Of a DNA stretch of 60,510 nucleotides, positions 4,396 through 55,220 are shown in pieces. The stretch lies in NCBI GenBank assembly GCA_964457915.1, contig CAYWFM010000002.1, positions 1-60,510 on the forward strand, written 5' to 3'. The notes below the pieces were generated by a model, which saw only the letters and a program-made list of their open reading frames with translations, had not been told where the DNA came from and made no database searches. How positions within the stretch are numbered: position 1 is the first letter of the stretch; every line of letters starts with the position of its first letter. The translations under genes and the position numbers were made by a program. Source of the DNA: an uncultured Candidatus Saccharibacteria bacterium (GTDB lineage: Bacteria > Patescibacteriota > Minisyncoccia > Phycocordibacterales > SBAW01).

Positions 4396-4959
4396 ATGCT
4401 ACGTCTATTTCTTCCCATTCTTCTTGTCGGCAGCGCTATAGCACTTTTTGTGCTGTATACCAATCCAACCTACCAGAAGATCAAAGGACTTTCTCTGCAG
4501 AATAAATCCTATTCTGAAGCTCTTGATAATGCGAAACACTTGATCCAAGCTCGCAATGATCTACTCGCAAAGCGTGATGGTTTTCAGGCCTCCGACCTAG
4601 ACAAGCTAAAGCATATTTTGCCAGACAATGTCGATAATATCCGTCTCATAATTGATGTAAACAATATCGCCTCACGCCACGGACTCTCTCTTTCGAATGT
4701 CACACTGGGTAATTTGGATAAAAACGGGGACAATCCTGCAGACACCGGGGCGACCTTAGGGAGCAAAACAGGGTCGGTAGATGTGGGCTTTGCAGTGTCG
4801 ACCAATAATTACGACACTTTCATAGCGTTCCTCCAAGATCTTGAGCACAGCTTGCGCCTACTTGATGTTATGAGTCTTAATTTTTCAGCTGCAAAAAGTG
4901 ATGGAGCGACTAACGCAACCCTCTACACTTTTACGGTGCGTACCTATTGGCTACACTAA
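4396..4959 (+). CDS. pilO: PilO-like pilus assembly membrane protein
   Basis: 187 aa with an N-terminal TM helix (LFLPILLVGSAIALFVLY) followed by a coiled-coil-like segment. It starts 3 nt after the previous stop. Confidence 0.55.
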   Translation: MLRLFLPILLVGSAIALFVLYTNPTYQKIKGLSLQNKSYSEALDNAKHLIQARNDLLAKRDGFQASDLDKLKHILPDNVDNIRLIIDVNNIASRHGLSLSNVTLGNLDKNGDNPADTGATLGSKTGSVDVGFAVSTNNYDTFIAFLQDLEHSLRLLDVMSLNFSAAKSDGATNATLYTFTVRTYWLH

Positions 4960-4962
4960 ATT

Positions 4963-5298
4963 ATGCTAACTTTTCTTAAAGAAAATATGGTGTTCAGTAT
5001 CATCGCACTCGTGGCAGTGTTGGGTGGCGGATACTATTTCCTTTTTAGACAAACGGGCGCAGGCCCCGTGCTTACGAGTAGTGAAATAGCCACCCCGGAG
5101 TCTCAATTAATTTTGCAACAGCTCGCCAGTTTGCAGGGGATACACCTAGATGATGCGGTCTTTAAAGATCCGGTATTTCTTTCACTTACCGACTTTGGGG
5201 TTGTGTTGAAGTCAGAGCCGGTTGGCCGACGCAACCCATTCCAGCCCATTTCATTTGCTCCGTCAGCCAATCAACTGCCCCTGCCTGGGAAGAAATAA
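4963..5298 (+). CDS. small pilus-locus membrane protein (PilP-like)
   Basis: 111 aa with an N-terminal TM helix and a C-terminal GRRNPFQP motif reminiscent of PilP/GspC (R-D/N-P-F). It is tightly packed between the pilO-like gene and pilB. Confidence 0.45.
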   Translation: MLTFLKENMVFSIIALVAVLGGGYYFLFRQTGAGPVLTSSEIATPESQLILQQLASLQGIHLDDAVFKDPVFLSLTDFGVVLKSEPVGRRNPFQPISFAPSANQLPLPGKK

Positions 5299-9418: not shown

Positions 9419-9541
9419 GGAGAAGGCCGCCGAGCGGCTCCCTGTTATCCACACGAAGAGGGGTGGGGTGTCGCTAAGGGTCGTATACTAGTAGTGTCTG
9501 CGCTTTCATTATTAAGCAGATTAATAGTTATTAATTGATTT

Positions 9542-10069
9542 ATGCATAAATCTGTTACAAAGGGCTTCACCCTTATCGAACTCTTGGTGGTTATCGCCAT
9601 CATCGGTATTTTGGCCTCCATCGTGCTTGTGTCTCTTAACAGCGCTCGTACCAAGAGTCGTGATGCAAACCGCGTCGCCTCCCTCGGTGAAATGGCAAAA
9701 GCTATCCAGGTTGCTGATATTGACCCAGCACCAGCAATTACCGGTTGTACAACCGCTGGTGCAAAGGCAAATACCTGCACAGGTCCAACTCCAGTTGCTT
9801 TCTCCAATTATGGCGATCCATCAGTGGGTACTGGTGGTACTGCTTGCGCCGTTGCTACAGCTGCAACAGCAGGTTCAGCGGCTTGCCAATATTCGATTGG
9901 TCAGGCTGGTACCGCGGGTGCAGCATTCGTTGCAGCTCCAACTACGCAGAACTATCGCATCTGCAGCATTCTTGAAGGCGGCAATACTTCATACGGCGGT
10001 ACGGCGGCTACCTTTGGTGCAGTCCACGTAGGTTCTGATACCGGAGGTTCGGTCATCGCAGGCTGCTAA
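9542..10069 (+). CDS. type IV pilin, paralog 1 (candidate major pilin)
   Basis: Class III signal MHKSVTKG|[24 protein letters not shown] (the Glu5 equivalent is present). It has its own terminator at 10091-10127 and a C-terminal [12 protein letters not shown]. Confidence 0.9.
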
Positions 10070-10090
10070 TCTCGTCCTTTCTGGTGTTGT

Positions 10091-10127
10091 AGAAATCCCC
10101 AGCTCAAAGCTGGGGATTTCTATTTTT
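10091..10127 (+). terminator. rho-independent terminator after pilin 1
   Basis: Hairpin AGAAATCCCCAGC-TCAA-GCTGGGGATTTCT followed by ATTTTT. Confidence 0.8.
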
Positions 10128-10190
10128 GAGGTACAATTATGTGCGAAGGTCTCCGTTCATCTCGTATTATTTGGTGACTATTAATTATGT

Positions 10191-10742
10191 ATGCATAAAT
10201 CTGTTACAAAGGGCTTCACCCTTATCGAACTCTTGGTGGTTATCGCCATCATCGGTATTTTGGCCTCCATCGTGCTTGTGTCTCTTAACAGCGCTCGACA
10301 GAAAAGCCGTGATGCTGCGCGTGTTGCGTCTCTAAAAGAAATGGCTAAAGCTATGCAAGTTGCTGATGCTGATCCAGCCCCGTCTCCTACCGGTTGCTAC
10401 ACCAGTGGTACGCGGTATGTGAATGCAAACGGCTGTAAGGGCCCAGTCCCTATAGTGTTTGGTAAGTACTCTGACCCTACTGTGGGTGGTTCAGGAACGG
10501 TCTGTCAGGGTACTGCGGGTACAATATCTACCGCGCCTTGTCAGTATGCTATTTCTAAAGTAGACGGAACGGCACCAACTACAAACACAGCTGGTACTGC
10601 AACTTCTATCACCACACAGAGCTGGGAGATTTGTACTCTTCTTGAAACAGGTAATGTTACCTATGGTGGTGCTATCGCAACCAACGGTATGGTGCGTGTA
10701 GGTTCAGACACAGGAGGTGCTGTCCGTGCGGGGTGCAATTAA
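10191..10742 (+). CDS. type IV pilin, paralog 2
   Basis: The first 107 nt are identical to pilin 1 (9542-9648 = 10191-10297). The centre is divergent and the C-terminus ([13 protein letters not shown]) is conserved. Confidence 0.9.
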
Positions 10743-10756
10743 TCTCTGTGTAAATC

Positions 10757-10794
10757 AAAGAAATCCCCAGACTGAGCTGGGGATTTCTTTTTTT
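10757..10794 (+). terminator. rho-independent terminator after pilin 2
   Basis: Hairpin AAAGAAATCCCCAG-ACTGAG-CTGGGGATTTCTTT followed by a T-run. The stem sequence is related to the pilin-1 terminator. Confidence 0.8.
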
Positions 10795-10813
10795 GGGAGT
10801 ATACTAACGCTAT

Positions 10814-11401
10814 ATGAAAACGTTTACAAAGGGCTTCACCCTTATCGAACTCTTGGTGGTTATCGCCATCATCGGTATTTTGGCCTCCATCGTGCTGGTA
10901 AGTTTAAACCAAGCGCGAAGTCGTGCTCGAGATGCAAACCGCATGGCGTCTCTTGAGCAAATGGGTCGGTTTATCGCAATAAACGACTCTGATCCGTTCA
11001 GTAGTTTTTGGACTGCTGCGGGCGATCCTGCTGCGCTGCCAGGGTGTGCGACTGAATATTGCAGTATCTCTGATGTTGTTGAAGGTCCTATGTCGATAGG
11101 CCGAGATGCGACCACCTCAATTGCTACTAATTTTCAGCTGTTTATTGATCCAACCGCAGGAACCTCCTCGCCAGCGTGCCTTGGTGCAACTGGCGGCCCT
11201 GCCGACCCTCCAGGTACGGTGTGTGGCTATTCTATGTCTCGTATAGACAATGAAAACCCAACAGGTAGCGCTACAGGTAATCCCGACTCTCAACACTATC
11301 AAATTTGCGCAATGCTCGAGGGTAGCATTGGTGGCTATGGCGCGGGGTTGGTGCATGTTGGTTCTGATACCGGCGGCTCAGTGCAGCCTGGATGCAACTA
11401 A
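10814..11401 (+). CDS. type IV pilin, paralog 3
   Basis: Signal MKTFTKG|[24 protein letters not shown]. It shares 73 identical nt with the pilin 1/2 N-terminal coding region and has the C-terminus [13 protein letters not shown]. Confidence 0.9.
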
Positions 11402-20787: not shown

Positions 20788-20860
20788 AGCGGGGTGGAGG
20801 AGTAGTACCTCACGAGGCTCATAACCTCGGGACCCGGGTGCAAATCCCGGCCCCGCAACA
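20788..20860 (+). tRNA. tRNA-Met (CAT), initiator-like
   Basis: Cloverleaf: acceptor AGCGGGG/CCCCGCA (1:72 A-A mismatch), D stem GAGG/CCTC, anticodon arm CGAGG-CTCATAA-CCTCG, T arm CCGGG-TGCAAAT-CCCGG. The ends (GCGGGGTGGAG...CAAATCC.GGCCCCGCAAC) closely resemble bacterial tRNA-fMet. CCA is not fully encoded. Confidence 0.8.
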
Positions 20861-20865
20861 AGAGA

Positions 20866-20899
20866 AACGAAAAGTCCCGCCTTGGCGGGACTTTTCGTT
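20866..20899 (+). terminator. 15-bp hairpin after the first tRNA
   Basis: AACGAAAAGTCCCGC-CTTG-GCGGGACTTTTCGTT. Confidence 0.5.
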
Positions 20900-20935
20900 G
20901 AAAGTACGGCCTAAAAATGCTAGGGTATGGTCACA

Positions 20936-20999
20936 TCCGCCTTCGCATAAGCTTCGGCGGGACAATGTCCGCCGTGGCTCAAGCTATGGCGGGACGATG
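20936..20999 (+). repeat. two tandem 32-nt hairpin repeats abutting tRNA(CAT)-2
   Basis: TCCGCC-N14-GGCGGGAC(A/G)ATG occurs twice, at 20936-20967 and 20968-20999. The stem arms are conserved and the loops differ. Confidence 0.75.
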
Positions 21000-21072
21000 T
21001 CGGCGTAGCTCAGGTAGTTAGAGCATGGGACTCATAAACCCAAGGTCGGAGGTGCAAGTCCTCCCGCCGACA
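20999..21072 (+). tRNA. tRNA with CAT anticodon (elongator Met or lysidine-modified Ile2)
   Basis: Acceptor GTCGGCG/CGCCGAC, D arm GCTC-AGGTAGTTA-GAGC, anticodon loop CTCATAA, T arm GGAGG-TGCAAGT-CCTCC, discriminator A. No CCA is encoded. Confidence 0.85.
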
Positions 21073-21234
21073 CAAAAACGAAGTTTTTGAGCGCGAGCAA
21101 AATGCCTGCGCATTTTGCGTGGAGGACTTGCAAGGCACAGCGATGCTGAGCCAGCGGGCGAGGCCGCGAGCCGGGGCCGAGAAAATTTTGCTGCAGCAAA
21201 ATTATTCGTGGCCAAGCCTCCCGCCGACACAAAA
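21073..21234 (+). mobile_element. tRNA-3'-end-associated conserved non-coding element, copy 1 (ends in an 18-nt duplicate of the tRNA 3' end)
   Basis: Direct repeats CCTCCCGCCGACACAAAA at 21060-21077 and 21217-21234. The 78-nt core at 21139-21216 is 69/78 identical to 31230-31307. A perfect 20-nt palindrome lies at 21184-21203. Confidence 0.6.
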
Positions 21235-21339: not shown

Positions 21340-24300
21340 ATGCACCATATTTTTCATACAACAAGGCCGCTGGTGTTCAAAATAGCAATACTTTTTGTTA
21401 TTTTTTCGATAGCTTTTTCTCCTGTGGTATCTGTGTATGCGCAAACGACCACGCCAATAAGCGAATTGCCACCGCCTTCAGTGGCGACGAACACGCCAGA
21501 CACTCCAACTCTGTCACTGCCGGTAGATGCTGGTGCTTCAGAAAGAAATATTTCTCCTGTAAATTTTGAAGCACCTACTCCACAAGTGCAGCCAGGCGCA
21601 CCCGGGGGTAATGAAAAGGCACTTGTCCCAGAATCGGCTGCTGCAGCCAACACAAACGAAGGCGCTGGTGTGGGGACTACTTTAAACAGAGCGGGCACCT
21701 TTTCAACCCAAAGTGCTGTCGATGAGACAGATAGTTTTAGTGGACTAGTCTCCACTCAAAATCCTTCGGGTCCTGACTATATGTCTGGTGCCGTAACATA
21801 CTCAGTACCTATAGCGATACCTCCTGGGCGCAATGGTATGCAGCCTAACGTGCAACTCACGTATAACAGTCAAAGGGCAGATCAATCTTCCATCGTCGGC
21901 TACGGGTGGGAATTGTCCATACCATATATTCAACGTCTTAATAAACAGGGGTGGGATAGTATCTATGATGAAGACGATTACTATTCGTCATTGAGTGGTG
22001 ATTTGGCAACCACCTCTGTCCTTGGGACTTTTCAGACCCGATCTGAGGATGGGCAGTTTCTCCAATACACATATGCAACCACCACCGGTTGGACAGTCAA
22101 AGATAAGAAGGGAGTAGTATACACTTTCGGTTCAAGCACCCTTGCTCGACAAGACGATCCTGCGAATCCCTCACATGTTTATAAATGGATGCTTACAGAA
22201 GTGCGTGACAGTAACGGCAATTTCGTTACCTATCAATATATTAAAGATGGTAACCAGATATATCCCTCAACCATTACCTATACCAATTCTGCTTCATCGA
22301 CAGGTATATTTAGTATCGAATTTTCACGGGAATCGCGACCAGATAATGCAACTTCCACCTACCTTGGTGGCTTTGGTGTAAAAAGTGCATATCGTATTTC
22401 TGAAATTATTTCCAAGGTTAACGGTGTGTGGACTCAAAAATACACCCTTGCATATTTAGCGGGTGATAATGGGCGGCGCTCGCTGCTCGCAGCTGTCACA
22501 CAATCAGGCCAAGATGAAAAGGGCGTGCTTACCACACTGCCGCCCACCACGTTTAATTATCAGTCTTCAACTACGACCAAGGGGTGGGTGGAGAATCCTC
22601 AATGGGGACTTCCTATCGGTTTAGCTTTGCCGAGCGTTTTCCTTTCTGATTACTCTGGCGACGGGTTGCTAGATGTAATTTATCAGCTAGATGATCTCGC
22701 TGATTCGCCAAACGCTCATGCAAAACTCAACCTAGGAACGGGTAACTGGAGTGAAGCCTCTACGACATGGTACGAGCCGGGGTATATGGGTGTTCCTGGT
22801 TGGCGCATGGGCGACATGAACGGTGATGGTTGGTCAGATGCTGTTTATAGTTCAGACGACCCCATGTTCACTTTTAATCGAGTATATATAAACGTTGGGG
22901 CAGGATGGGTGCTTAGCACGAGCACGGTGCCTATACCGTTTAATAACGCAAAAAGTACATTCCTTATTGATGTAAACGGTGATGGTCTTTCTGATGCGGT
23001 ACAGTCGTATACAAGTGGGCAAGAGATTTTGCAATATAATCGTGTGTTTATTAACGATGGAAACGGTGGTTGGATGGATGAAAGTACCACAACATGGCAA
23101 ATGCCCCCACTATATATGAATGCATACGGCAATCGTATGTTTGATGTGAATGGTGACGGTCTGCCAGACATCTTGCGCAAAGATAATACCACTGGTGACA
23201 ATCGGACTTATATAAACACAGGGCATGGATGGATATATGACGAAGCATGGAGCCATTTGCCGCGATTAGTGGATCCCGGAGCGTGGTTCATTGATGTTAA
23301 TGGAGACGGTATTCCAGACATACTATTTTCGGCCGACTATGGTGGCACGGCACAGTACGAGGAGGCATATATAGGTGATGGGTATGGGGGTTTTAACTTA
23401 GACACAGGATGGGTGCCACCTTTGCGATTGATGGGAAAGTACAACATGCCGGTTGACCTGAACGGGGATGGTATGCCAGACATGCTCGATTCATTTAATC
23501 TGACGGTTCGGCTTAATAAAGCTCTCAAGGCAGATCTTCTCTCGCAAGTCACGACACCAACGGGGGCAAAAACGTCATTCGGATATAAAATGACCACCGC
23601 GTACCGCGACGTGTCGGGGGGTATGCTCAATCCGCATTTGCAATATCCATTACTTACCGTTAACACGATCACGACGAATGATGGATTTGGGAATGTAGCC
23701 ACAACTACCTATGAATACAAGGATGGAGTTAACTACTATGCGAGCGCTTTTGATCATCAGTTAGGGGGATTTGGTCTTGTGACCAAGACGGATACTTTTG
23801 GGAATGTCACCAAAACATATTTTCACACCGGTGGTGGTACTGATGCGGCGCACGGCGAATATGCAGACTCGCGATATAAAATAGGGAGGGCGTATCGGAC
23901 AGAGGTGTATGATGACGCCAACCGTCTGTATAGCAAAACCATATATAGATGGGACAGTACTCCCGTGAGTACTAATGCAGCTTTTGTGTATCTGGCGCAA
24001 GCTGTTGAATCATCCTATGACGGTGGGTCCACACACAAAGATAGTGCCGAGCAATATACGTATGACTCCACAGGGAACCTTACACTTAAAAAACAATATG
24101 GGCAGGTACAAGGGAATGATGATGGGACATATGGCGATGTGGGGTCTGATCTTGTATCAACCACGTACACCTATGCGGCTAACGGATCGACCGCAACAGG
24201 TTTTTTGGCTAGCGCTTTAGTGCAGGATCAGAGTAGTACTAAAGTCCGCGAAGCTCGCTACTACTATGACAATCTCTCTTTAGGTAGTGTAACCGTTGGC

Positions 24301-27300
24301 AATCAAACCAAAGGGGAGGATTGGATATCAGGCTCACTGTATGCCTCTACTACTAAGACCTATGGCATGTATGGATTTGTGGTGGGAGCGACAAATCAGA
24401 GTGGAGGGGTGACGACGTATGTGCCGGACACGTACTACTTGTACCCAGCCACTACCACTAATCCGCTGAACCAATCGACGAGCTACCAGTATAACTATGC
24501 TCTCGGAAAGGTGATACGTGCTGTAGATCCTAATGGCAGCGTGAGTACGACGACCTATGATGGATTAGGCAGACCTCTTTTTATTGGAGTTACAGATCCA
24601 CAAACTGGCGCTTTAGTAACACGCACCGTGTACGCATATACCGATAGTGCTACGCCAGGGGGCACTAAAGTTGCACAAACCGACTACCAAACAGCCGCGA
24701 CGAGCACGGCAACCTATACCTATTTTGATACCCAAGGTAAGCCAGTCCAAAAAAGAGTCCAGGTGGGTGGGAATAATACGTACGCGATTACTGACACTAT
24801 ATACAACAGGCTTGGATTGGTTGGTTTGCAGAGTTTGCCATACTTTGCCTCAAGTACCGGCCGGACAGGCGCCACCACAACAATCGCTTTGTACTCGACA
24901 TACTTCTACGATGCTCTTTGGAGAGTGATAAAAGTAACTGATGGAGTCGGAAGCACTACCTATACATATAAACCTTGGCAGACGACTGTTGTAGACCCTC
25001 GCAGTAACCCAAAACTACTGCAGTATGATGCGTATAAAAATTTAGCAACGGTGGTTGAGTTTAACGCCACCTCTACAGGCACTACTACGTATGCCTATGA
25101 TGCGAGCAATAATCTAGTGAATGTTACTGATGCGCAAGGTAACACTCGTGCGTTTACGTATGATGGGCTAGGGAGGCGGACATCAGCACAAGATTTACAT
25201 GCGCCAGGCGACCCAACTTTCGGCACATGGGCGTACGTTTATGACGCTGCAAATCTTCGCCAGTCGGTGGATCCAAAAGGTCAGGTGGTCAATTACACTT
25301 ACGATGTGCTCAACCGCCCACTTACCGAAGATTACACAGGCTCGCCCGGCACTGAGGTACTCAATACCTATGACAGCTGCTCGAAAGGTATAGGGCAGCT
25401 CTGTGCAGCAAGTTCTACCTCGGCCTACATAACCTACACATACAACCCGCTCGGGTTGCGCGCGAGCGAAACAGCAAAGATTGTGGGTACTACTACGACG
25501 TTTACTACGTCATATCTCTATGACCAAATCGGGAATCAAACATACATAACCTATCCCGACGGATCAAAAGTGCAGTATGTATATACCTCAGGTAATCAGA
25601 TAGATGCTGTGTTTGAAAAAGAAGGAGGTGTGGGCACCGCAACCACTACTATAGTGAGCAAATTCACCTACGCTCCTACGGGGGATATTGCCACCGTGCA
25701 ATATGGCAACGGAGCAACTACTACCAATAGGTATGATGCAAACACTCTGTACAGATTGGCTAGCAGAGTAACCGCAACACCGACCGCTGGGCGTGCACAA
25801 GATCTGACCTATACCTACGACACGGTGGGGAATATCACCCAAATCACGGACGCTTCAAACTCTGCGACCAACAAAGTAGTTAGATATGCATATGACGCTC
25901 TCAATCGACTCACCGCAGCATCAACGACCAGTGCAACAACAACCCCTGATTACAGCTATAGCTATACCTATGACAAACTCGGTAACATCACGAGCGGGCC
26001 CGCGGGTGTATATGCATACTTGGGCAATGTTGGCTCTACCTATGCAAACCCACATGCGCTAACGGCGCTCTATGTAGCTACTTCAACGCGACTTGCAGAT
26101 ACTATTGCGACCTCAACTATTCTTCTTGAGTCTACATCAACGAATATATCTTCCGGCCTTACAGGCACGACCACAAAAACATGGGTGCACCCGACAGTAT
26201 CAAGCAAGGCGCTCGTGGTTCTTTCTGCAGAAATCCTTGGGCATGTTGTCGGAGGAGGGTTTGTGGGATCTTCAACATGGAACGGGAGCCCCCTGGGCCG
26301 TATTCGGTATACTCGTAATGGAGTTATTAACACAGAGGTGTGGTATACCGTCGCTACGACAAGTGGCCCAGGTGTCTTATCGGTAAATATTACGGGAGAC
26401 TCAGATGCTATCAAACTCAACGCTGCATCTTTTGTGGGGGTTGCGACAACTTCACCCTTGGTCGCCTCGAATGTAGTCGGGGGGAGTAGTGGGAATCCGC
26501 CAATTGCGCTCCCTATGACCCCTAAAAATGCTCTGGTGGTGGCTGTGCTCACCCGCAACTCAACCACCAGTGCTACAACCAATCGCACTGCTATTAGTAA
26601 TGACACAACAGGCCCGATACTGAGCGCATCGAGTTATCAACTGGCGACCACTAGTGGGACGACTACTGACACTTACACTGGGGCGGCGGCACAAGGTTGG
26701 ACTATGATCATGGTCGCGTTTAAAGCGGCTACTACGACTGTGTTTGGTGGCTTTGGTACAACAACGGCTACCACCACCCTTGTGTATGACCAAAATGGCA
26801 ACTTGCTTAGTGAGGGTGTCTCTACCTACGCATGGGACTACAAAAACAGATTGGTTCAAAGTGGAGACGGAGTCGCAACTTCGACCTATGGGTATGACCA
26901 GAATGGTACTCGAGTAAAAACAGTTGAAAAAGGATATACGACTCTGTATCCAAACAAGCTTTACAATGTGATGCTTGGAGGAAACGCAACCACCACCAAG
27001 CACATCTTCGCAAACAATCTGCTGCTCGCGACTGTTGAGAACATCGCGGCGCCACTCAGCGGTTGGGTGAGTACTTCGACCATCGCCATCGCTGCAACCT
27101 CAACTAATGTTACGGTTGGTTTCGCAAGCTCCACGGTGCGCACATGGACGCATATGGTCACAGCGCCAAACTCGCTGGTAGTGTTGTATGCAGATATTCT
27201 CCAAAATACTGCTACAGGCACGGTGAGCTCTGCCACACTCAATGGCGCCGCCTTCACAAAGGCTACCTCGACGCTCCAGGGGACCATGGACGCCGAGCTT

Positions 27301-28683
27301 TGGTACGTACTAGCGATCACCTCAGGATCAAAAACAGTAGTTGTAAATGTGGCGGGTAATACCAATGCAATTAAACTCGCCGCTGCCTCCTTCATCGGCA
27401 CAACTCTCGTTAATCCTCTGGGCAACACCACAAAAGCAGTAGGCACCACCGGCTCTCCCACCATCAGCATCACCCCTGCGGCTAAAACCGACCTCCTAAC
27501 GACAACACTCTCGCGCAATGGCACGAGTGATGCTACCTCTACCGCTCTTTCAATATACAAAGACAACCTCATCGCAACCCTGGGCGCTGCAAGCTACCAG
27601 TTTGCCACCACCACTAAGGCATATACCGACACCTACCTCGGTGCGACAACCACCAACTGGGCTTTGGTAGCAGCCACCTTCAAACCTGCCACCACTACCG
27701 TAGGAGCAGTAGCAACCTCCACCCTGCGCTACTTTGCTACCGACAATCTCTCTGGCGCCAACGTTGTCATGGATACCACAGGCACCATAGTCGAAACTCT
27801 CGACTACTACCCATATGGTGCGCTGCGTATTGATACCAAAGCAGGAGCCTATACCGGAGAGAAGCGTAAATATGCAGGTACTGAGTACGACGCGGGTAGT
27901 GGATTAAACTACATGAATGCGCGTTACTACGAGGGGTCTCGCGGTCAGTTCCTTTCACAGGACCCTGTGTTCTGGGAAGTGGGCCAGACTAAGGACGGCA
28001 TAAGAGCTTTATCAGACCCTCAATCAATGAACAGTTATTCTTATGCGGGCAATAATCCGATCACTCAAAGTGACCCAAATGGCCGTTGGTATAAGGAGTT
28101 CGTAACTGGCCAACAATCCTTCTCGAGTTTCTATGGTGAAGTCGGCGAAGCGGCAAATTATCTTGGTCAAAGTAGTCCGGCATGGAATTATGCAATGAAT
28201 AATCCATATACAACCGGAGCGGTAGTTGGAGTGGGTTCAGGACTTGCAGCATACGGTGCGTCAGCAGCACTAACATCACTTAGCGTAGATGCTCTTTCGG
28301 GAATCGGAACTCGATCCATGGGAAATCTGTCTAGATTGGAGTCTCTTCCTCAAACAACGCAAGTACCGGGTAAGCTTGATCTTCTTTCACAACAAACTGG
28401 AAAATCTGTTGGCCAATTACTACAAGAAGCTTCACAAAGCGGTAAACCTTACATCGATTTCCGTAACGGGGGGAATATAAATATCCTTAATCAAAGCGGA
28501 TTGCCAAACACACTTAGTCGCATTACGACAAATCCTCAAATTACAAAAATTATTTCAGCTGGGCGTATGGAAACCTCGCAGGTGTCAAATCTGGTAAGAT
28601 CGGGTAACATGCAAGGTCTCCAATCAACCTTGTCGGGCCTGTCTAAGGTTCTTGGACAAATATCAAAATTATTGTCAAAATAG
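21340..28683 (+). CDS. RHS/YD-repeat polymorphic toxin (WapA/TcB-TcC-like) with Sec signal, SpvB-like N-domain, FG-GAP/VCBS repeats, RHS core and variable C-terminal domain
   Basis: 2447 aa. It has a signal-like N-terminus (IAILFVIFSIAFSPVVSVYAQ), an SpvB-type motif (SGAVTYSVPIAIPPGRNGMQPNVQLTYNS), repeated D.NGDG.(P/S)D motifs and many YD repeats (YTYDGLGR, YAYDALNRL). The RHS core reads YYPYGALR...GTEYDAGSGLNYMNARYYEGSRGQFLSQDP...DPNGRW. Confidence 0.9.
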   Translation: MHHIFHTTRPLVFKIAILFVIFSIAFSPVVSVYAQTTTPISELPPPSVATNTPDTPTLSLPVDAGASERNISPVNFEAPTPQVQPGAPGGNEKALVPESAAAANTNEGAGVGTTLNRAGTFSTQSAVDETDSFSGLVSTQNPSGPDYMSGAVTYSVPIAIPPGRNGMQPNVQLTYNSQRADQSSIVGYGWELSIPYIQRLNKQGWDSIYDEDDYYSSLSGDLATTSVLGTFQTRSEDGQFLQYTYATTTGWTVKDKKGVVYTFGSSTLARQDDPANPSHVYKWMLTEVRDSNGNFVTYQYIKDGNQIYPSTITYTNSASSTGIFSIEFSRESRPDNATSTYLGGFGVKSAYRISEIISKVNGVWTQKYTLAYLAGDNGRRSLLAAVTQSGQDEKGVLTTLPPTTFNYQSSTTTKGWVENPQWGLPIGLALPSVFLSDYSGDGLLDVIYQLDDLADSPNAHAKLNLGTGNWSEASTTWYEPGYMGVPGWRMGDMNGDGWSDAVYSSDDPMFTFNRVYINVGAGWVLSTSTVPIPFNNAKSTFLIDVNGDGLSDAVQSYTSGQEILQYNRVFINDGNGGWMDESTTTWQMPPLYMNAYGNRMFDVNGDGLPDILRKDNTTGDNRTYINTGHGWIYDEAWSHLPRLVDPGAWFIDVNGDGIPDILFSADYGGTAQYEEAYIGDGYGGFNLDTGWVPPLRLMGKYNMPVDLNGDGMPDMLDSFNLTVRLNKALKADLLSQVTTPTGAKTSFGYKMTTAYRDVSGGMLNPHLQYPLLTVNTITTNDGFGNVATTTYEYKDGVNYYASAFDHQLGGFGLVTKTDTFGNVTKTYFHTGGGTDAAHGEYADSRYKIGRAYRTEVYDDANRLYSKTIYRWDSTPVSTNAAFVYLAQAVESSYDGGSTHKDSAEQYTYDSTGNLTLKKQYGQVQGNDDGTYGDVGSDLVSTTYTYAANGSTATGFLASALVQDQSSTKVREARYYYDNLSLGSVTVGNQTKGEDWISGSLYASTTKTYGMYGFVVGATNQSGGVTTYVPDTYYLYPATTTNPLNQSTSYQYNYALGKVIRAVDPNGSVSTTTYDGLGRPLFIGVTDPQTGALVTRTVYAYTDSATPGGTKVAQTDYQTAATSTATYTYFDTQGKPVQKRVQVGGNNTYAITDTIYNRLGLVGLQSLPYFASSTGRTGATTTIALYSTYFYDALWRVIKVTDGVGSTTYTYKPWQTTVVDPRSNPKLLQYDAYKNLATVVEFNATSTGTTTYAYDASNNLVNVTDAQGNTRAFTYDGLGRRTSAQDLHAPGDPTFGTWAYVYDAANLRQSVDPKGQVVNYTYDVLNRPLTEDYTGSPGTEVLNTYDSCSKGIGQLCAASSTSAYITYTYNPLGLRASETAKIVGTTTTFTTSYLYDQIGNQTYITYPDGSKVQYVYTSGNQIDAVFEKEGGVGTATTTIVSKFTYAPTGDIATVQYGNGATTTNRYDANTLYRLASRVTATPTAGRAQDLTYTYDTVGNITQITDASNSATNKVVRYAYDALNRLTAASTTSATTTPDYSYSYTYDKLGNITSGPAGVYAYLGNVGSTYANPHALTALYVATSTRLADTIATSTILLESTSTNISSGLTGTTTKTWVHPTVSSKALVVLSAEILGHVVGGGFVGSSTWNGSPLGRIRYTRNGVINTEVWYTVATTSGPGVLSVNITGDSDAIKLNAASFVGVATTSPLVASNVVGGSSGNPPIALPMTPKNALVVAVLTRNSTTSATTNRTAISNDTTGPILSASSYQLATTSGTTTDTYTGAAAQGWTMIMVAFKAATTTVFGGFGTTTATTTLVYDQNGNLLSEGVSTYAWDYKNRLVQSGDGVATSTYGYDQNGTRVKTVEKGYTTLYPNKLYNVMLGGNATTTKHIFANNLLLATVENIAAPLSGWVSTSTIAIAATSTNVTVGFASSTVRTWTHMVTAPNSLVVLYADILQNTATGTVSSATLNGAAFTKATSTLQGTMDAELWYVLAITSGSKTVVVNVAGNTNAIKLAAASFIGTTLVNPLGNTTKAVGTTGSPTISITPAAKTDLLTTTLSRNGTSDATSTALSIYKDNLIATLGAASYQFATTTKAYTDTYLGATTTNWALVAATFKPATTTVGAVATSTLRYFATDNLSGANVVMDTTGTIVETLDYYPYGALRIDTKAGAYTGEKRKYAGTEYDAGSGLNYMNARYYEGSRGQFLSQDPVFWEVGQTKDGIRALSDPQSMNSYSYAGNNPITQSDPNGRWYKEFVTGQQSFSSFYGEVGEAANYLGQSSPAWNYAMNNPYTTGAVVGVGSGLAAYGASAALTSLSVDALSGIGTRSMGNLSRLESLPQTTQVPGKLDLLSQQTGKSVGQLLQEASQSGKPYIDFRNGGNINILNQSGLPNTLSRITTNPQITKIISAGRMETSQVSNLVRSGNMQGLQSTLSGLSKVLGQISKLLSK

Positions 28684-28687
28684 CTAT

Positions 28688-28972
28688 ATGGATACCGTTA
28701 AAAAACTAATCGATTCGTTTTTAGGTCAGGAAATAACCCTTGATGATTTTTTTAGTTCCATTAGTAAGTTTTACGCGCCCGATAGTCTAGAATGGAAGAA
28801 TTTGACCCAAGAGGAACAAGACTTCATATATGAAATCTATGAAAAGGCAACGTATGCTGCCGACGGGCTTTCCAAAGCTGACCCTGATAGAAAATATGGA
28901 GTTATCGATCAAGATGACTTCAAGAAATGGCTAGGTGAAATAAAAGAGAAGAATATCCAGTTCTGGAAATAG
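28688..28972 (+). CDS. small acidic protein immediately downstream of the RHS toxin (candidate immunity protein)
   Basis: 94 aa from the ATG at 28688, 5 nt after the RHS stop. It is AT-rich like the toxin tail. The function is assigned from position only. Confidence 0.5.
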   Translation: MDTVKKLIDSFLGQEITLDDFFSSISKFYAPDSLEWKNLTQEEQDFIYEIYEKATYAADGLSKADPDRKYGVIDQDDFKKWLGEIKEKNIQFWK

Positions 28973-28979
28973 ATCGATA

Positions 28980-29210
28980 ATGAAATACAGTGAATTTGCC
29001 CTGCCTTTACTAGCATTTGCATTAGGGGTTTGGCTTTTGATCCAGATTAAAAATGAAGTGGAAACAGGTGCACTTCGATTGAAAAGTGGAGGAAAAACTT
29101 ATCGAAAGGAACACCCAAATCAGTTTTTATTTGGAATAGTAATACAGAGTGTAATCGCAGGAATTCTCATCATATATCCGCTGGTGCATTTTTCGTTTCT
29201 TTTTCTTTAA
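28980..29210 (+). CDS. small two-TM membrane protein (alternative immunity candidate)
   Basis: 76 aa with two hydrophobic helices (LPLLAFALGVWLLI; FLFGIVIQSVIAGILIIYPLV). It starts 8 nt after the previous stop. Confidence 0.4.
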   Translation: MKYSEFALPLLAFALGVWLLIQIKNEVETGALRLKSGGKTYRKEHPNQFLFGIVIQSVIAGILIIYPLVHFSFLFL

Positions 29211-30169
29211 GTGAGAACAGTGGCACATCTTTCATCTTTCTTTTGCTTGATCCAATCATAGAATTGAAATCCATTACACTGATTCGAGTGCCACCTGTCT
29301 TTTTCCAAAATTGAGCCATTCGTTCAGCCCACTCGATTTCAGTAGTGATTTTGTATTCAATCTTTGTAGTTTCGATCTCTCCATCGTCATTTCGTTCTCC
29401 AGATTTTACAGGAACATAGCCGTGTGGCTCGACTAGATTCTTGTAGTAGACAACATGGTCGACAAAGTCTAAGAAGAATTGCCGATATGTCTCGAAGTCT
29501 TTGCATTGTTGAAGTCGTACCCTGATCTCATCGCAGTATTGAGCAATACTCAGTTCGATCGCTGCTGGTTTATGTAGTAAGGGTATCCGCTTTACCAGAT
29601 CCAACTTCTCGTTAGCCAGTTCACTAATCTCCTTATCGTATTCAGCGCTCTTTTTTGCATACTCTGCCCGTTCGGCACCACCATTAGCATAGAGTTCAAG
29701 AATTCGTTTTTTTAGCAATACTGATAGCTCTTAGTCTGGTTTCTATCTTTCCGAGATGGCGCTGTAGTCGCATTTGAGATGCGCGTCCATCACTTTTGAA
29801 GATATCCATGTGCTTCTTGAGTGTCTCCGGTTTTACAACTTCTTCTCTAAAAAGTTTGTAAACTTTCTCCTCAAGGATTGATGTTTTTATTTCATTGTTG
29901 TCGCACTTCCGAAGATTCGACTTTTTGGAATGCTGTAATATTCGGATTGTCCAATTGCACTTGTACGATGCTCGGTGATAGACCTTGTGCGGAGTACTTC
30001 GTTTATCGACGTAATAGCGGCGGTATGCATAACAGCTTCCGCCGCATCCTCCACACCGAATCAGGTTTGATAGTAGTTGCGGTATTCGTGGGTTGCGATA
30101 TTTCTTCCTGTAGTAGTCAATTTTATCTTGAACCTTATTGAACAACTCCTTGGAGATAATCGGAGGCAC
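29170..30169 (-). pseudogene. large serine recombinase remnant (5'-truncated, frameshifted)
   Basis: Two overlapping - ORFs (29696-30169 and 29170-29718) together encode a recombinase-domain end, a Zn-ribbon (CGGCGGSCYAYRRY...YKCN) and a coiled-coil tail. The N-terminal resolvase catalytic domain is absent, and an in-frame TAA lies immediately upstream of 30169. Confidence 0.6.
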
Positions 30170-30296
30170 TTAAAAAGCAATTACAAGCAAGCACCAGGGA
30201 TCCGGGTAGACCTAAAATATTATGACACAAAACATGTAAATAAAAGGTGACTGACCCTATTGACTATTGATGGCTTTGGAGGGAAATGAAGAGTTT

Positions 30297-30536
30297 TTAT
30301 CTAAATAGTTCTAAAAAACCAAATCCTAGCAAAATAATAGACACTAACACGATTACCATTCGAACATAGACGCTATCCATGTTGTCTGCTTGAAACTTGA
30401 ATACTTTCAAACCAGTTCGAAGATAACAATGATTAAGAAGTTTAATCGAGATTTGTATAAAAGTATTTGAAAAGATAAGTAATAGTAAAGCAATTGTGAT
30501 GTTTATAAGTGAATCTAAATTATTTAATGTAAACAT
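30297..30536 (-). CDS. small hydrophobic ORF in AT-rich DNA
   Basis: 79 aa with two hydrophobic segments and no recognisable family. Confidence 0.25.
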   Translation of the reverse strand: MFTLNNLDSLINITIALLLLIFSNTFIQISIKLLNHCYLRTGLKVFKFQADNMDSVYVRMVIVLVSIILLGFGFLELFR

Positions 30537-30676
30537 ATATTTTGCTATTAAAAATTAATCAGTCCTAACATCTTATGATCTCACGCCGATTCTACCACTT
30601 TAGTGGGGACAGATATCAATAAGTGACGAAAATTGTTGTGTATACTCAAGAGAGTTATTAGGTAAACGTATACGAT

Positions 30677-30922
30677 ATGCATACAAGACTTGTGATGGCG
30701 AGTGCAGGGGCCGCGCTACTACTTACTATGGGGGTCACGACAATAGCAGCAGCACAGATTACGCCAGGAGGTGGGGATGTGCCAGGGACTACTCAAGATT
30801 GTAAAAATGGCGGCTGGGTCACTCTGAGCGATGGTTCATCGTACTTTAAAAACCAGGGTGACTGTGTAAGTTATGTCGCTACTGAAGGCAGTAATCTCGC
30901 TGCCGGAAACCCTGTCCTCTAG
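30677..30922 (+). CDS. small secreted protein
   Basis: 81 aa with a signal-peptide-like N-terminus (MASAGAALLLTMGVTTIAAAQ) and two Cys. It is followed by a strong terminator. Confidence 0.5.
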   Translation: MHTRLVMASAGAALLLTMGVTTIAAAQITPGGGDVPGTTQDCKNGGWVTLSDGSSYFKNQGDCVSYVATEGSNLAAGNPVL

Positions 30923-30960
30923 GAGGGAGAAGAGTTTAAGTGCGTTTGTGGGCACAGTGA

Positions 30961-30994
30961 GCAAAAACACCTCCGTAGCAGGAGGTGTTTTTGC
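30961..30994 (+). terminator. rho-independent terminator
   Basis: GCAAAAACACCTCC-GTAGCA-GGAGGTGTTTTTGC followed by a T-rich tract. Confidence 0.8.
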
Positions 30995-31055
30995 TATTTA
31001 TTTTTTGACATTTTTGCGCTAGAATGCTCCTGCCTGCCCCTTGGGGCTGGCATTT

Positions 31056-31129
31056 GCAGTGGTAGCTCAACTGGTTAGAGCACCCGCCTGTCACGCGGGA
31101 GGTTGCGGGTTCGAGTCCCGTCCGCTGCG
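31056..31129 (+). tRNA. tRNA-Asp (GTC)
   Basis: Acceptor GCAGTGG/CCGCTGC, D arm GCTC-AACTGGTTA-GAGC, anticodon arm CCCGC-CTGTCAC-GCGGG, T arm GCGGG-TTCGAGT-CCCGT, discriminator G. No CCA is encoded. Confidence 0.9.
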
Positions 31130-31322
31130 CTAGCGATAAAACCGAGTAGTTTTTACTACTCGGTTTTGCGCTTATGCGGGCAGCGGGAGAAACTGAACTT
31201 CTTCAGTTTCGCCGGGACTTGAAAGCCGGAGCGATGCTGAGCCAGCAGGCGAGGCCGCGAGGCAGGGTCGTGAAAAATTTGCTGCAGCAAATTTATTCCT
31301 GGCCGAGTCCCGTCCGCTGCGC
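31130..31322 (+). mobile_element. tRNA-3'-end-associated conserved non-coding element, copy 2 (ends in a 19-nt duplicate of the tRNA-Asp 3' end)
   Basis: Direct repeats CGAGTCCCGTCCGCTGCGC at 31112-31130 and 31304-31322. The core at 31230-31307 matches 21139-21216. A perfect 20-nt palindrome lies at 31275-31294. Confidence 0.6.
31138..31167 (+). terminator. rho-independent terminator after tRNA-Asp
   Basis: AAAACCGAGTAGT-TTTT-ACTACTCGGTTTT. Confidence 0.75.
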
Positions 31323-53437: not shown

Positions 53438-53823
53438 TCCTTCGCCCCTACGCCGCCAAGGCTTTGTAGGGCAAGCAAGCTTCGGAATGGCCTGGCCATC
53501 ACCATGCACTACGCGTACATACTTTGGAGCTCAAAATCTTCGAACTACTATTTCGGCTCAACCACCGATTTACGAAAGCGTTTGACTGAGCATAACAGTG
53601 GAAAATCCAAAGCAACAGCTCCATATCTACCGTGGAGGTTAGTTTGGTATGGAGCATTCGAAAACCGCCGGCTCGCCGAAGATTTTGAGCGGTATTTAAA
53701 GACAGGCTCTGGGAAAGCTTTCGCCTATAAACGCTTGGCCAATTCCGGAGTTTTGAAGAAGGATAAGTTTGAGTCCAAAAATGGTGTTACGAAGCTTTAG
53801 CGTAGTACACCTAGTCTCCCAGC
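53436..53823 (+). mobile_element. GIY-YIG gene cassette bounded by a 14-nt duplication of the tRNA-Gln 3' end
   Basis: CCTAGTCTCCCAGC occurs at 53422-53435 (inside the tRNA) and again at 53810-53823, 10 nt after the GIY-YIG stop codon. Confidence 0.5.
53504..53800 (+). CDS. GIY-YIG (URI/YhbQ-like) nuclease-domain protein
   Basis: 98 aa with the pattern YAYILWS...YYFGSTTDLRKRLTEHNSGK...W.LVWYGAFENRRLAEDFERYLK, which is the GIY...YIG...R...E/N pattern. Confidence 0.8.
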   Translation: MHYAYILWSSKSSNYYFGSTTDLRKRLTEHNSGKSKATAPYLPWRLVWYGAFENRRLAEDFERYLKTGSGKAFAYKRLANSGVLKKDKFESKNGVTKL

Positions 53824-53840
53824 TCGACAATTTGTAATAA

Positions 53841-54221
53841 GTGTGCTATTTTATAAATGGTAGTGTATGTAGATCTTCAACTAAAAGGTGCGCTGTGCCG
53901 AACATCCGAAACAAGAAACGGGATCCTTTAAAAGACGAGCAGCTTAAGGTGCTTTATCCAGAAGGGGTGGCTATTCTCGAATGCGACGATGGGATATGTC
54001 TCATCTGCCGACGAGACTCAGCATATGACAGGCAAATCATTGTATTTGGCGGCGAAGATTCAGCCGACAAAACTTCTGACTGTTGGTGGGTGGATTTGCA
54101 AGGAATACTGAAGGGAGAGTTTCTCGCCAGAAATACATCAATGATCAGGCGCGAACCGCTAGAATACAAAGCTAATGAAATGCTGTTGAGTGTGTCTATA
54201 CGGCTTACACTCAGTCTGTAA
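53841..54221 (+). CDS. hypothetical Cys-containing protein
   Basis: 126-aa ORF with an uncertain start (GTG at 53841, or GTG at 53895 behind AAAGG). No family is recognised. Confidence 0.3.
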   Translation: MCYFINGSVCRSSTKRCAVPNIRNKKRDPLKDEQLKVLYPEGVAILECDDGICLICRRDSAYDRQIIVFGGEDSADKTSDCWWVDLQGILKGEFLARNTSMIRREPLEYKANEMLLSVSIRLTLSL

Positions 54222-54318
54222 ATTTTGTTTATAACCCTAAGAGACCCCCAAACACAATCTCGCAGGTGACACCTGCTACAACAACCGTTACTCCCAGAGT
54301 GGCGGTTATTTTAATCTT

Positions 54319-54437
54319 GTTCCAACTTCCCTCCTTCGCCAAGGCTACGGGCGGGCGAGCTATCCTTCGAATCCTCTCAGGACCTACGGCCAGAGGGCCA
54401 GCTCGACTTTTTTATAAAAGTGTTGTAATTTTGTTTT
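54319..54437 (+). repeat. ~120-nt intergenic repeat, copy A
   Basis: It aligns with 55075-55194 and contains an identical 35-nt block, GGCTATCCTTCGAATCCTCTCAGGACCTACGGCCA. It ends in ACTTTTTTATAAAAGT(G/A)TTGTAATTT. Confidence 0.8.
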
Positions 54438-54466
54438 GGATAACAACTGTTCGAAGAGGTAATACG

Positions 54467-55074: not shown

Positions 55075-55194
55075 GTTCCAACATCCCCCCTTCACTAAAG
55101 TTACGGACGGGCAGGCTATCCTTCGAATCCTCTCAGGACCTACGGCCATAGGGGCAGCTAGTGACTTTTTTATAAAAGTATTGTAATTTGTTTT
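55075..55194 (+). repeat. ~120-nt intergenic repeat, copy B
   Basis: See copy A. A third, partial copy of its 5' end (AAAACAGTTCCAACA(T/C)CCC) lies at 55499-55520. Confidence 0.8.
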
Positions 55195-55220
55195 TAGCTG
55201 AACAAGGAGACATCTAAAAT

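Follow-up and report, generated by a model that had tools for sequence, protein, structure and literature searches.

Small non-coding elements with a conserved junction core and tRNA-templated arms recur behind tRNA genes of Patescibacteria

Patescibacteria, also called the Candidate Phyla Radiation (CPR), account for much of the diversity of bacteria; their genomes are tiny, and they are believed to be poor in mobile elements and in known regulatory RNAs. The stretch of DNA discussed here, called the window, covers 60,510 nucleotides of contig CAYWFM010000002.1 from an uncultured Candidatus Saccharibacteria bacterium. Two of its tRNA genes, tRNA-Met(CAT)-2 and tRNA-Asp(GTC), are each followed on the + strand by a small element (copy 1, 21073-21234, and copy 2, 31131-31322, respectively) that ends in a duplicate of the 3' end of the tRNA in front of it. 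Both are copies of a previously undescribed multi-copy family of small non-coding elements in Patescibacteria, which combines a conserved RNA-like core with arms taken from the neighbouring tRNA.

A sequence-only reading of copy 1 had proposed an exact 18-nt duplication of the tRNA 3' end, a 9-bp hairpin, a closing stem built from tRNA-derived sequence and a 20-nt palindrome, and all of them are present where it had placed them. The repeat, CCTCCCGCCGACACAAAA, occurs just twice in the window (21060-21077 and 21217-21234), while shuffles expect 0.01 matches; the hairpin at 21097-21118 has a CTGC loop, the segment GGAGGACTTG that enters the closing stem lies at 21121-21130, and the palindrome spans 21184-21203. 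The duplication also extends farther upstream, to C56 of the tRNA (CAAGT in the gene, CAAG- in the downstream copy, with one T deleted); T54, C56 and the discriminator A73 of this tRNA are nucleotides 21053, 21055 and 21072. The same reading had noted that the core recurs behind tRNA-Asp, which stands, but the 78 nt that it claimed are too short, the homology covering 93 nt at 86% identity (21124-21216 versus 31215-31307). Copy 2 likewise terminates in its own tRNA 3' end: GAGTCCCGTCCGCTGCGC is found at 31113-31130 and 31305-31322, and with C56 included (31112 and 31304) the repeat becomes the 19-nt CGAGTCCCGTCCGCTGCGC at 31112-31130 and again at 31304-31322, for which shuffles also expect 0.01 matches. 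The parts of both copies are collected in Table 1, where DR1 and DR2 are the two direct repeats (the tRNA's own 3' end and its displaced copy), P1 is the closing helix and the guide is its 5' strand.

Table 1. Positions of the two elements, their parts and their host genes in the window
Feature	Position	Strand	Basis or remark
Copy 1: host gene tRNA-Met(CAT)-2	20999..21073	+	ARAGORN; Rfam tRNA 62.7 bits; sequence
Copy 1: DR1 (tRNA positions 56-73 and 5 nt of trailer)	21055..21077	+	exact 18-nt repeat part, 21060-21077
Copy 1: spacer (mini-hairpin CAAAAAC-GAA-GTTTTTG, then AGCGCGA)	21073..21096	+	sequence; comparison with other copies
Copy 1: hairpin H*, 9 bp, CUGC tetraloop	21097..21118	+	sequence; family comparison
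Copy 1: guide = P1 5' strand, GGAGGACTTGCA	21121..21132	+	exact reverse complement of tRNA 54-65
Copy 1: three-way-junction core	21133..21213	+	minimum free energy (MFE) fold; alignments A1 and A2; pair counts; model R1 75.2 bits
Copy 1: P2	21134-21136 with 21170-21172	+	
Copy 1: P2b	21140-21142 with 21165-21167	+	
Copy 1: P5 hairpin with tandem G·A	21145-21164	+	
Copy 1: P3/P4 arm	21175-21213	+	
Copy 1: P4 hairpin (20-nt palindrome)	21184..21203	+	different sequence in other genomes, helix retained
Copy 1: DR2 = P1 3' strand and decoy copy of tRNA (CAAG-CCTCC..., from C56 through A73 and CAAAA)	21213..21234	+	
Copy 2: host gene tRNA-Asp(GTC)	31056..31130	+	C56 = 31112, G73 = 31129; ARAGORN, sequence, Rfam
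Copy 2: terminator-like hairpin (AAAACCGAGTAGT-TTTT-ACTACTCGGTTTT) between tRNA-Asp and element	31138..31167	+	
Copy 2: 5' arm	31180..31223	+	B', H* and guide
Copy 2: B' (GCAGCGG), complement of acceptor 3' strand, upstream of 9-bp hairpin	31180-31186	+	
Copy 2: H*, loop CTTC	31189-31210	+	
Copy 2: guide, CCGGGACTTGAA	31212-31223	+	reverse complement of tRNA-Asp 54-65
Copy 2: core	31224..31303	+	model R1 91.4 bits over 31211-31314
Copy 2: DR2, CGAGTCCCGTCCGCTGCGC = tRNA-Asp positions 56-74	31304..31322	+	

Further members of the family were obtained by pattern scans and with a covariance model, and the loci that contain them are designated below by numbers preceded by L. A metagenome scan with a 20-base core pattern returned 29 loci, with 2 true homologues, and a scan of the GTDB species-representative genomes with a 22-base pattern returned 28 loci, about 25 of them true, in 22 assemblies. 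The true GTDB loci belong to Saccharibacteria, Kaiserbacteria, Paceibacterota, Yonathbacteria, Minisyncoccia and other Patescibacteria; the three matches outside the CPR are chance matches in coding DNA. A tRNA gene lies just upstream on the same strand in 22 of the 32 scan extracts, and the 10 others include the three chance matches. The covariance model, R1, recovers 31 copies at E<1e-8, in 27 loci and nearly all of patescibacterial origin, together with weaker ones, and adds copies behind tRNA-Ser and tRNA-Val, so that the host tRNAs represent 12 amino acids (Met, Asp, Gly, Gln, Arg, Tyr, Leu, Ser, Lys, Pro, Ala and Val). The core recurs behind many tRNAs, each time with a duplicated 3' end, and the orientation of the tRNA-linked elements is always that of the tRNA. 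What comes next downstream varies: terminators, a further tRNA (L047), a further element or genes without any relation. Three loci (L045, L033 and L043) are away from any tRNA: in L033 this architecture follows a protein-coding gene with its terminator, and L045 has a complete unit with tRNA-Ser-type arms and no tRNA-Ser gene upstream. The distribution among genomes is patchy, as the 22-mer from the near-invariant region matches only about 22 GTDB species-representative genomes. A 23-base pattern derived from the window found no match in the GTDB set, which means that the window's own species is absent from it.

The earlier reading had not recognized the core as any named RNA or repeat, and none was found for it: further copies exist, and they belong to no known Rfam, insertion sequence or miniature inverted-repeat transposable element (MITE) family. 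Rfam 15 contains no match to the core of either window copy, at the gathering score or at E<=10, the hits being only tRNAs and noise, and none at E<=1 for the consensus-type copies L055, L046 and L004. The element pattern was not found among the IMG/VR viral contigs, BLAST against phage and plasmid collections gave no genuine match, and searches of the literature by keyword and by sequence string found no matching element. TIGR-Tas arrays were considered as relatives and rejected, as those are 36-nt units beside tas genes.

The core, about 95 nt long, folds as a three-way junction on the + strand, RNAalifold and a manual reading being in agreement. Arm 1 comprises P2, a GA/GA internal loop, P2b and P5, a hairpin with tandem G·A pairs, and its sequence hardly varies over 33 nt; arm 2 (P3/P4) is retained through compensatory changes only. 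The first junction strand, J1/2, is GAA and is itself complementary to T54-T55-C56. P2 has 3-4 bp and occurs as GCC/GGC, GGC/GCC, GAC/GUC or AGC/GCU; it is followed by the internal loop GGA/GA, by P2b (GCG/CGC) and by P5, GCC-GA-GCC AGCA GGC-GA-GGC, with tandem sheared G·A pairs. P5 is permuted in L036:1032 (GC-GA-GGCC ... GGCC-GA-GC), the motif being preserved, and in 7 copies the inner P1 pairs AUCG/CGAU are swapped for UGAG/CGAA, which again form tandem G·A pairs. P3a and P3b are richly covarying, and P4 is a variable hairpin, often with further tandem G·A pairs. Covariation supports this structure strongly: in the 31 copies 85.9% of the cells are paired, compared with 34-47% with slid partners, double changes occur in 21 of the 30 pairs, and none of 500 shuffles reached the observed values.

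Single-sequence folding gives the same + strand junction for both window copies, with z-scores of -1.5 and -2.4 on the + strand and of -1.0 and -0.15 on the - strand. The counts of G·U versus A·C (27 versus 15) weakly favour the + strand; a stronger argument for it comes from the z-scores and the tandem G·A motifs. Because of these z-scores and purine-purine motifs, the sequences indicate that selection acts on the structure of the tRNA strand. RNA is the simplest form in which it would do so, structured single-stranded DNA also being possible. The constraint on the core suggests an RNA that is under purifying selection and that would therefore have some activity. A kissing interaction between the CUGC loop of H* and the GCAG of the P5 loop was considered and rejected, as CUGC also accompanies cores that lack P5 (L140 and L037).

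The closing helix P1, by comparison, differs by locus, and both of its strands derive from the upstream tRNA. The 3' strand, DR2, copies the tRNA from C56, and the 5' strand, the guide, is the reverse complement of positions 54-65; a script shows that in almost every tRNA-linked copy the complementarity of the guide ends at T54 and DR2 begins at C56. The guide of copy 1 perfectly complements the unusual T-loop and T-stem of its tRNA-Met and thereby tracks a non-canonical T-loop, TGCAAGT. Both tRNA-Met(CAT) genes of the window have such T-loops, TGCAAAT (20841-20847) and TGCAAGT (21053-21059), with G55 instead of the universal U, and the T-loop of the first tRNA-Met of L059 is TGCAATT.

Upstream of the guide, many copies have a hairpin with a conserved CUGC loop (H*), whose stem sequence is variable across the family and whose loop and base are conserved; it is preceded by a complement of the acceptor 3' strand, so that the guide is often continued past the hairpin by a complement of the acceptor 3' strand and of the trailer. 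Comparison among copies identifies AGCGCGA in the spacer of copy 1 as a decayed form of this complement. The guide of L004 and L035 is instead one unbroken stretch of 18-21 nt; combined with a terminator-like hairpin, it and the tRNA 3' end make up a palindrome of about 40 bp. A hairpin between the end of the tRNA or gene and the element is present in window copy 2, L004, L035, L046, L048, L056 and L033 and is absent in many type-A copies. The guide carries C opposite G where the 5' strand of the tRNA has U in a G·U pair (window copy 2 and L031), and it runs into the trailer in L035 and L050b; hence, it is a complement of the 3' strand of the tRNA and not a copy of its 5' strand. For the same two reasons the possibility that the 5' arm is a degenerate second tRNA gene was rejected.

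The right end of DR2 is less regular. It lies at position 73/74 in about 10 copies and farther out, from +4 to more than +50, in some others, with the terminator included in L048 and L072; DR2 is only 7-13 nt long in L035, L052, L056, L031, L032 and L038. Over all copies, the direct repeat measures 7-13, 18-28, or 53 nt or more. CCA follows DR2 in three tRNA-linked copies (L004, L011 and L041), which could be taken as a mark of copying from a mature tRNA; this was rejected, as the CCA is inconsistent and C74 is nearly general in CPR tRNA genes. Indeed, C occupies position 74 in 70 of the 76 Patescibacteria tRNA genes in the window and the CPR loci, mostly followed by A (CAA, CAG, CAC or CAT), and only 7 of the 76 encode CCA. 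This bias may reflect an unusual signal for 3'-end maturation.

The arms can also be recognized independently of the core. A generic detector, which requires a guide with at least 10 of 12 positions complementary to 54-65 and an exact copy of 56-63 further on, is positive for 21 of the 76 tRNAs of the collected CPR loci with their own T-arm, compared with 1.9% when the tRNAs are swapped. It also finds members with quite different cores in L140, L037 (two) and L031, so the architecture, in which a tRNA segment S is followed by a hairpin, the reverse complement of S, a core and S again, is wider than the R1 core. These elements lie at 4766-5050 and 5284-5405 of L037, at 5834-5995 of L031 and at 870-1045 of L140 (- strand); one alternative core is AT-rich with a conserved GUAC(A/U)G...C(A/U)GUA hairpin, and another has nothing left of the R1 core but the P2-GA/GA-P2b motif. 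The elements may thus form a superfamily in which cores can be exchanged.

Exchange is also apparent among the cores of the R1 type. The two window cores are mutual nearest neighbours in their variable parts (0.80, versus at most 0.62 to others) despite their Met and Asp hosts, and so are the cores behind tRNA-Arg and tRNA-Ser in L036. Between genomes, the nearest cores lie behind different tRNAs or at a non-tRNA site. In an all-against-all BLASTN comparison, loci cease to be homologous -4 to +2 nt from the 3' end of P1, and the homology starts at the CUGC hairpin, or at the start of the tRNA where the tRNA is the same; L032 and L052 share just tRNA-Gln and the element (244 nt, 87.7%), and their flanks are unrelated. 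At a tRNA-Gly(TCC) locus beside a HAD-family gene, L004, L035 and L140 all retain the arms; L004 and L140 retain the tRNA, the hairpin and the arms, yet their cores differ. Elements also accumulate in arrays: in L037 a single tRNA-Pro is followed by two units that have the same type of core and by a nested unit of the R1 type, and tandem units occur in L072, L044 and L045.

Empty sites are known as well. In relatives with the synteny GatA ... tRNA-Met, tRNA-Met, tRNA-Asp, tRNA-Thr, the sites behind the second tRNA-Met and tRNA-Asp are empty, except that the tRNA-Asp site is filled in L072; these are distant relatives, the GatA of the closest being 61% identical. A block of about 10 kb (21340-31000) separates tRNA-Met-2 from tRNA-Asp in the window, whereas the two genes are 4-650 nt apart in L059, L069, L072 and L096. 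It contains a 2447-aa open reading frame (ORF) with D-V-N-G-D-G-type repeats, small unannotated ORFs and a GC dip to 41% at 28-30 kb, and it may be an inserted island that starts directly after copy 1. Assemblies are affected by the elements, too. L001, a Logan contig of 10 kb and the only contig returned by look-ups of exact proteins, ends inside tRNA-Met-2 (at about window position 21023), and runs of N lie inside the elements of L050 (about 6250) and L054 (about 4500), a practical cause of contig ends at CPR tRNA loci.

As the sequence-only reading had anticipated, no recombinase is encoded by the elements, in which all ORFs are spurious. Small ORFs across the element were considered and rejected, because the copies differ in length by other than multiples of 3 and show compensatory changes. 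Clustering of the ORFs across element-bearing loci revealed no shared neighbour, and Pfam identified housekeeping genes only, with no recurrent recombinase, among the 88 ORFs within 2.5 kb of the 27 loci. No recombinase was found among the ORFs of the window either, which encode type IV pilus proteins, LigA, GatCA, an RND pump, CTP synthase and others. tRNA-Gln(CTG), which like few other tRNA genes of the window encodes CCA, is followed after 67 nt by an 82-aa stand-alone GIY-YIG nuclease gene (53504-53749, Pfam E = 6e-17). This nuclease was rejected as a partner of the element, having no homologue near other copies.

The earlier reading had left two options, a non-autonomous tRNA-targeting element or a tRNA-linked structured RNA, and both halves hold, given the recurrence behind many tRNAs, the covariation and the lack of an ORF. 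The signature of site-specific insertion into a tRNA 3' end, which it had also pointed out, is supported, with an inverted copy of the tRNA found besides the direct one. The interpretation that we tentatively prefer joins these options: the family would be a non-autonomous insertion module specific for tRNA 3' ends, whose cargo is a selected structured RNA. It builds on what the sequences show, namely the family and its fold, arms templated on the tRNA, cores exchanged between loci, arrays and a lack of coding capacity, and adds to this a conjectured route of insertion. What seems not to have been described before is the principle, by which a conserved junction has its closing helix made anew from the 3' end of the neighbouring tRNA, copied once directly and once inverted.

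Insertion would proceed by recombination that uses the sequence of the T-arm and the 3' end. One possible route is the Campbell-type insertion of a small unit carrying one copy of a tRNA 3' end; this would account for the left edge at C56, for the frequent right edge at the end of the tRNA and for the accretion of arrays. The other is fold-back and copy-choice template switching at the palindromes of T-arm and terminator, which would account for the inverted copy and fits L048, where the junction is consistent with fold-back priming at the end of the terminator stem. Either route would leave an intact tRNA upstream and a displaced copy of its 3' end downstream. Once in place, the element would probably be transcribed as the 3' trailer of the tRNA, and its RNA could adopt two states, one in which the guide pairs with the decoy DR2, the junction is closed and the tRNA is free, and one in which the guide invades the 3' half of the real tRNA. 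The most plausible role of the core RNA would be the recruitment of a host factor for the element's own processing or propagation. Folding predictions are compatible with two states: in 18 of 18 copies, the predicted MFE of the joint transcript lies 1-20 kcal/mol below the sum for the tRNA and the element folded separately, and the folds displayed place the guide on the 3' half of the real tRNA and, where DR2 is complete, the 5' half of the tRNA on DR2. As modelled, then, the 5' strands of the tRNA, DR1, the guide and DR2 would make up a two-state system.

Several points weigh against an insertion module. Neither route accounts for all copies. The direct repeat stops at 73/74 in about half of the copies, while the palindrome continues through a unique hairpin, which is not what a simple fold-back model predicts. 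A transposase, integrase or reverse transcriptase was found neither in the window nor near the 27 loci. At some loci the association is old, since three related genomes have a filled tRNA-Gly(TCC) locus and both the window and L072 a filled tRNA-Asp site, and it fits a vertically kept, host-useful RNA equally well; the similarity of cores within a genome could be due to gene conversion instead of transposition. Finally, the near-invariance of 33 nt across classes exceeds that of most selfish DNA.

Several known systems come close to the family. MITEs and the small bacterial repeats that fold as RNA (Correia, BOX, ERIC and REP/BIME) resemble it in being short, non-coding, multi-copy and intergenic and in being able to form stable hairpins in transcripts. 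Unlike in MITEs, the terminal inverted repeats (guide and DR2) vary with the host tRNA and are not a constant of the family, and there is no target-site duplication of fixed length, the direct repeat ranging from 7 to more than 50 nt and starting almost always at C56. Furthermore, in contrast to these small repeats, the copies are old enough to have accumulated compensatory changes, with 33 nt invariant across bacterial classes. No TnpA, TnpB or IscB ORF is adjacent to the elements, and no Rfam match links them to the palindrome-associated transposable elements (PATE) of IS200/IS605 or to the guide RNAs of TnpB/IscB. Retron msr-msd RNAs may be compared in topology, as paired ends (like a1/a2) close two arms, one conserved and one a variable long hairpin; the element differs by the lack of an adjacent reverse-transcriptase gene in the 27 loci, by several copies per genome and by its tRNA-derived closing helix. 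In short, every known family tested fails on a defining feature.

A more far-reaching version of the insertion module, which we regard as rather unlikely, would make it a protein-free, self-retargeting module of RNA or DNA that hops between tRNA genes and also acts on them as a two-state hostage switch. The structured RNA, together with host enzymes, would recognize the universally conserved T-arm of any tRNA gene, and the tRNA 3' end would be copied in both orientations, by which the closing helix is rebuilt; the anti-tRNA strand and the decoy could then hold the linked tRNA hostage. If true, mobile elements of this kind would form a class of their own, and no cis-acting RNA switch would have been described before for the maturation of tRNA.

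The regulatory half of this idea could also stand alone, as a cis-acting RNA switch of the host for tRNA maturation, in which the junction senses a protein or a small molecule; we consider this doubtful. Stabilization of P1 (guide:DR2) would allow folding and processing of the tRNA, and otherwise the guide would zip by way of the trailer into the acceptor and T strands and block maturation. The four segments with their two exclusive pairings, as predicted, and the MFE differences given above would suit such a switch, and five copies in which DR2 has only 8-11 nt keep a near-perfect complement of the acceptor 3' strand that can pair with nothing but the real tRNA. Invariant internal loops beside variable peripheral helices are aptamer-like, and at two loci, tRNA-Gly(TCC) and tRNA-Asp, the element has persisted through time. 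The likeness to riboswitches and attenuators includes a conserved, covarying junction core, variable peripheral helices and, as modelled, the competition of P1 with an alternative helix; the family differs from them in lying 3' of tRNA genes and not in the 5' untranslated region of mRNAs from functionally coherent genes, in that the regulated partner would be a tRNA, and in being patchy like a mobile element. Indeed, a switch kept by the host sits uneasily with occurrence in about 22 GTDB species-representative genomes, with at least four unrelated-looking cores in the same flanking architecture, with 12 amino-acid identities among the host tRNAs, with tandem and nested arrays and with the three loci away from any tRNA. 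The MFE predictions, moreover, leave out tRNA modification, tertiary structure and co-transcriptional folding.

Less probable still is a free-standing, tRNA-like non-coding RNA, in which B':B and A':A would form an acceptor/T-stem minihelix, the CUGC hairpin would replace the D and anticodon domains and the junction the T-loop. RNase P, RNase Z and the CCA-adding enzyme would trim its ends, and a protein would bind to the invariant arm, tandem G·A motifs being typical protein-binding sites. The 5' arms of L045, L055, L058, L031 and window copy 2 do follow the topological order of a tRNA (acceptor complement, hairpin, T-stem complement), DR2 ends most often at the discriminator or at C74, the CCA of L004, L011 and L041 would fit, and the L045 unit exists without a tRNA gene. 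The acceptor part of DR2, however, is absent in at least five copies, and B' is absent or decayed in others, including window copy 1; the CCA is inconsistent and C74 near-universal in CPR tRNA genes, and neither ARAGORN nor Rfam calls anything tRNA-like. With 3'ETS-leuZ, tmRNA, viral tRNA-like structures, mascRNA and YrlA the element shares a position in the 3' trailer of a tRNA and a partial mimicry of the acceptor/T-stem stack. It differs in having no T-loop (bases 56-60 are paired away), in forming the stack in a subset only and in being copied from the neighbouring tRNA instead of being a generic mimic, and why the helix should match that tRNA is left without a reason.

Integrative elements that target tRNA genes and their cis-mobilizable derivatives (CIMEs) share with the family the intact tRNA upstream, the displaced direct copy of its 3' end, the left edge in the T-loop and tandem accretion at the same tRNA. 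The elements could then be miniature cis-mobilizable remnants of tyrosine-integrase islands, with DR1 and DR2 as attL and attR, a T-loop-specific integrase acting in trans and the core as the remainder beside attR. The classical att arrangement is indeed an intact tRNA upstream and a direct repeat from the T-loop to the tRNA 3' end, the tandem arrays resemble att-site accretion, and the 10-kb block absent from relatives follows copy 1; even so, we judge this origin quite improbable. A tyrosine or serine integrase was found neither in the window nor within 2.5 kb of the 27 loci, the phage, plasmid and IMG/VR collections gave no hit to the element that could point to an integrase-bearing island with the same ends, and no third repeat bounds the 10-kb block. 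A single integrase would not serve tRNAs of 12 amino acids, arm-type sites would not give RNA-type covariation, tandem G·A pairs and tolerance of G·U, and att sites have no counterpart of the inverted target copy. In contrast to the integrative elements, the family combines a size of about 160 nt with many tRNA species, an internal inverted copy of the target and a covarying, RNA-type interior.

A self-cleaving or splicing ribozyme, either a T-loop "intron" with a duplicated exon or an anti-tRNA-guided ribozyme for 3' processing in cis, is very unlikely. The small, nearly invariant core between substrate-like helices would suit a ribozyme, many small ribozymes are linked to repeated or mobile DNA, and a predicted alternative fold places the whole element in the T-loop of a tRNA made of the tRNA 5' part and DR2. 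On the other hand, there is no match to an Rfam ribozyme family at E<=10, the junction strands do not fit the hammerhead core, and the architecture is also occupied by other cores; several copies have a truncated DR2, which means that DR1 is the working 3' end and that splicing is not needed. Class C group II introns, too, are structured RNAs that have a segment complementary to the target, and they insert behind intrinsic terminator hairpins; of the elements, some follow a hairpin and many do not, as described above. These introns are six-domain ribozymes, usually with an encoded reverse transcriptase, and differ from the element in measuring at least 600 nt instead of about 110 nt, and the element has no domain V/VI, no Rfam intron match and no ORF or reverse transcriptase, and duplicates its target. 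Chance similarity or an assembly artefact, for which it might be said that assemblers break at repeats (the end of L001, the N runs in L050 and L054), can hardly be entertained when the same architecture occurs in more than 25 independent assemblies from different projects, shuffles expect 0.01 matches per repeat and covariation is not producible by assembly.

The window has some other features that are described here for completeness. The 5' leader of tRNA-Met-2 (20930-20998) contains two tandem hairpins of about 30 nt (TCCGCC-N14-GGCGGGAC), and the GGCGGGAC stem is common to these hairpins and to the terminator of tRNA-Met-1 (20866-20899). Positions 9538-11029 hold three paralogous units in tandem, which measure about 620-650 nt, are 63-83% identical and each cover a putative pilin-like ORF of 175-195 aa, downstream of putative pilB/pilT/pilC-like ORFs. 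Repeated non-coding segments of 100-120 nt that are 82-91% identical lie at 53819-53852, 54319-54437 and 55075-55195, with a spacing of about 756 nt, and end in AT-rich, promoter-like sequence before unannotated ORFs (54266-55021 and the next).

For Patescibacteria, the family represents a recurrent and strongly constrained RNA structure that is physically and structurally tied to tRNA genes, and alignment A2 and the covariance model R1 now make this RNA of about 110 nt annotatable. If it is mobile, it would be a non-coding DNA that spreads through the most conserved 10-20 nt of any genome, and it would explain why assemblies break at tRNA loci of the CPR. A regulatory role, if it has one, would make it the first switch to act in cis on a tRNA.

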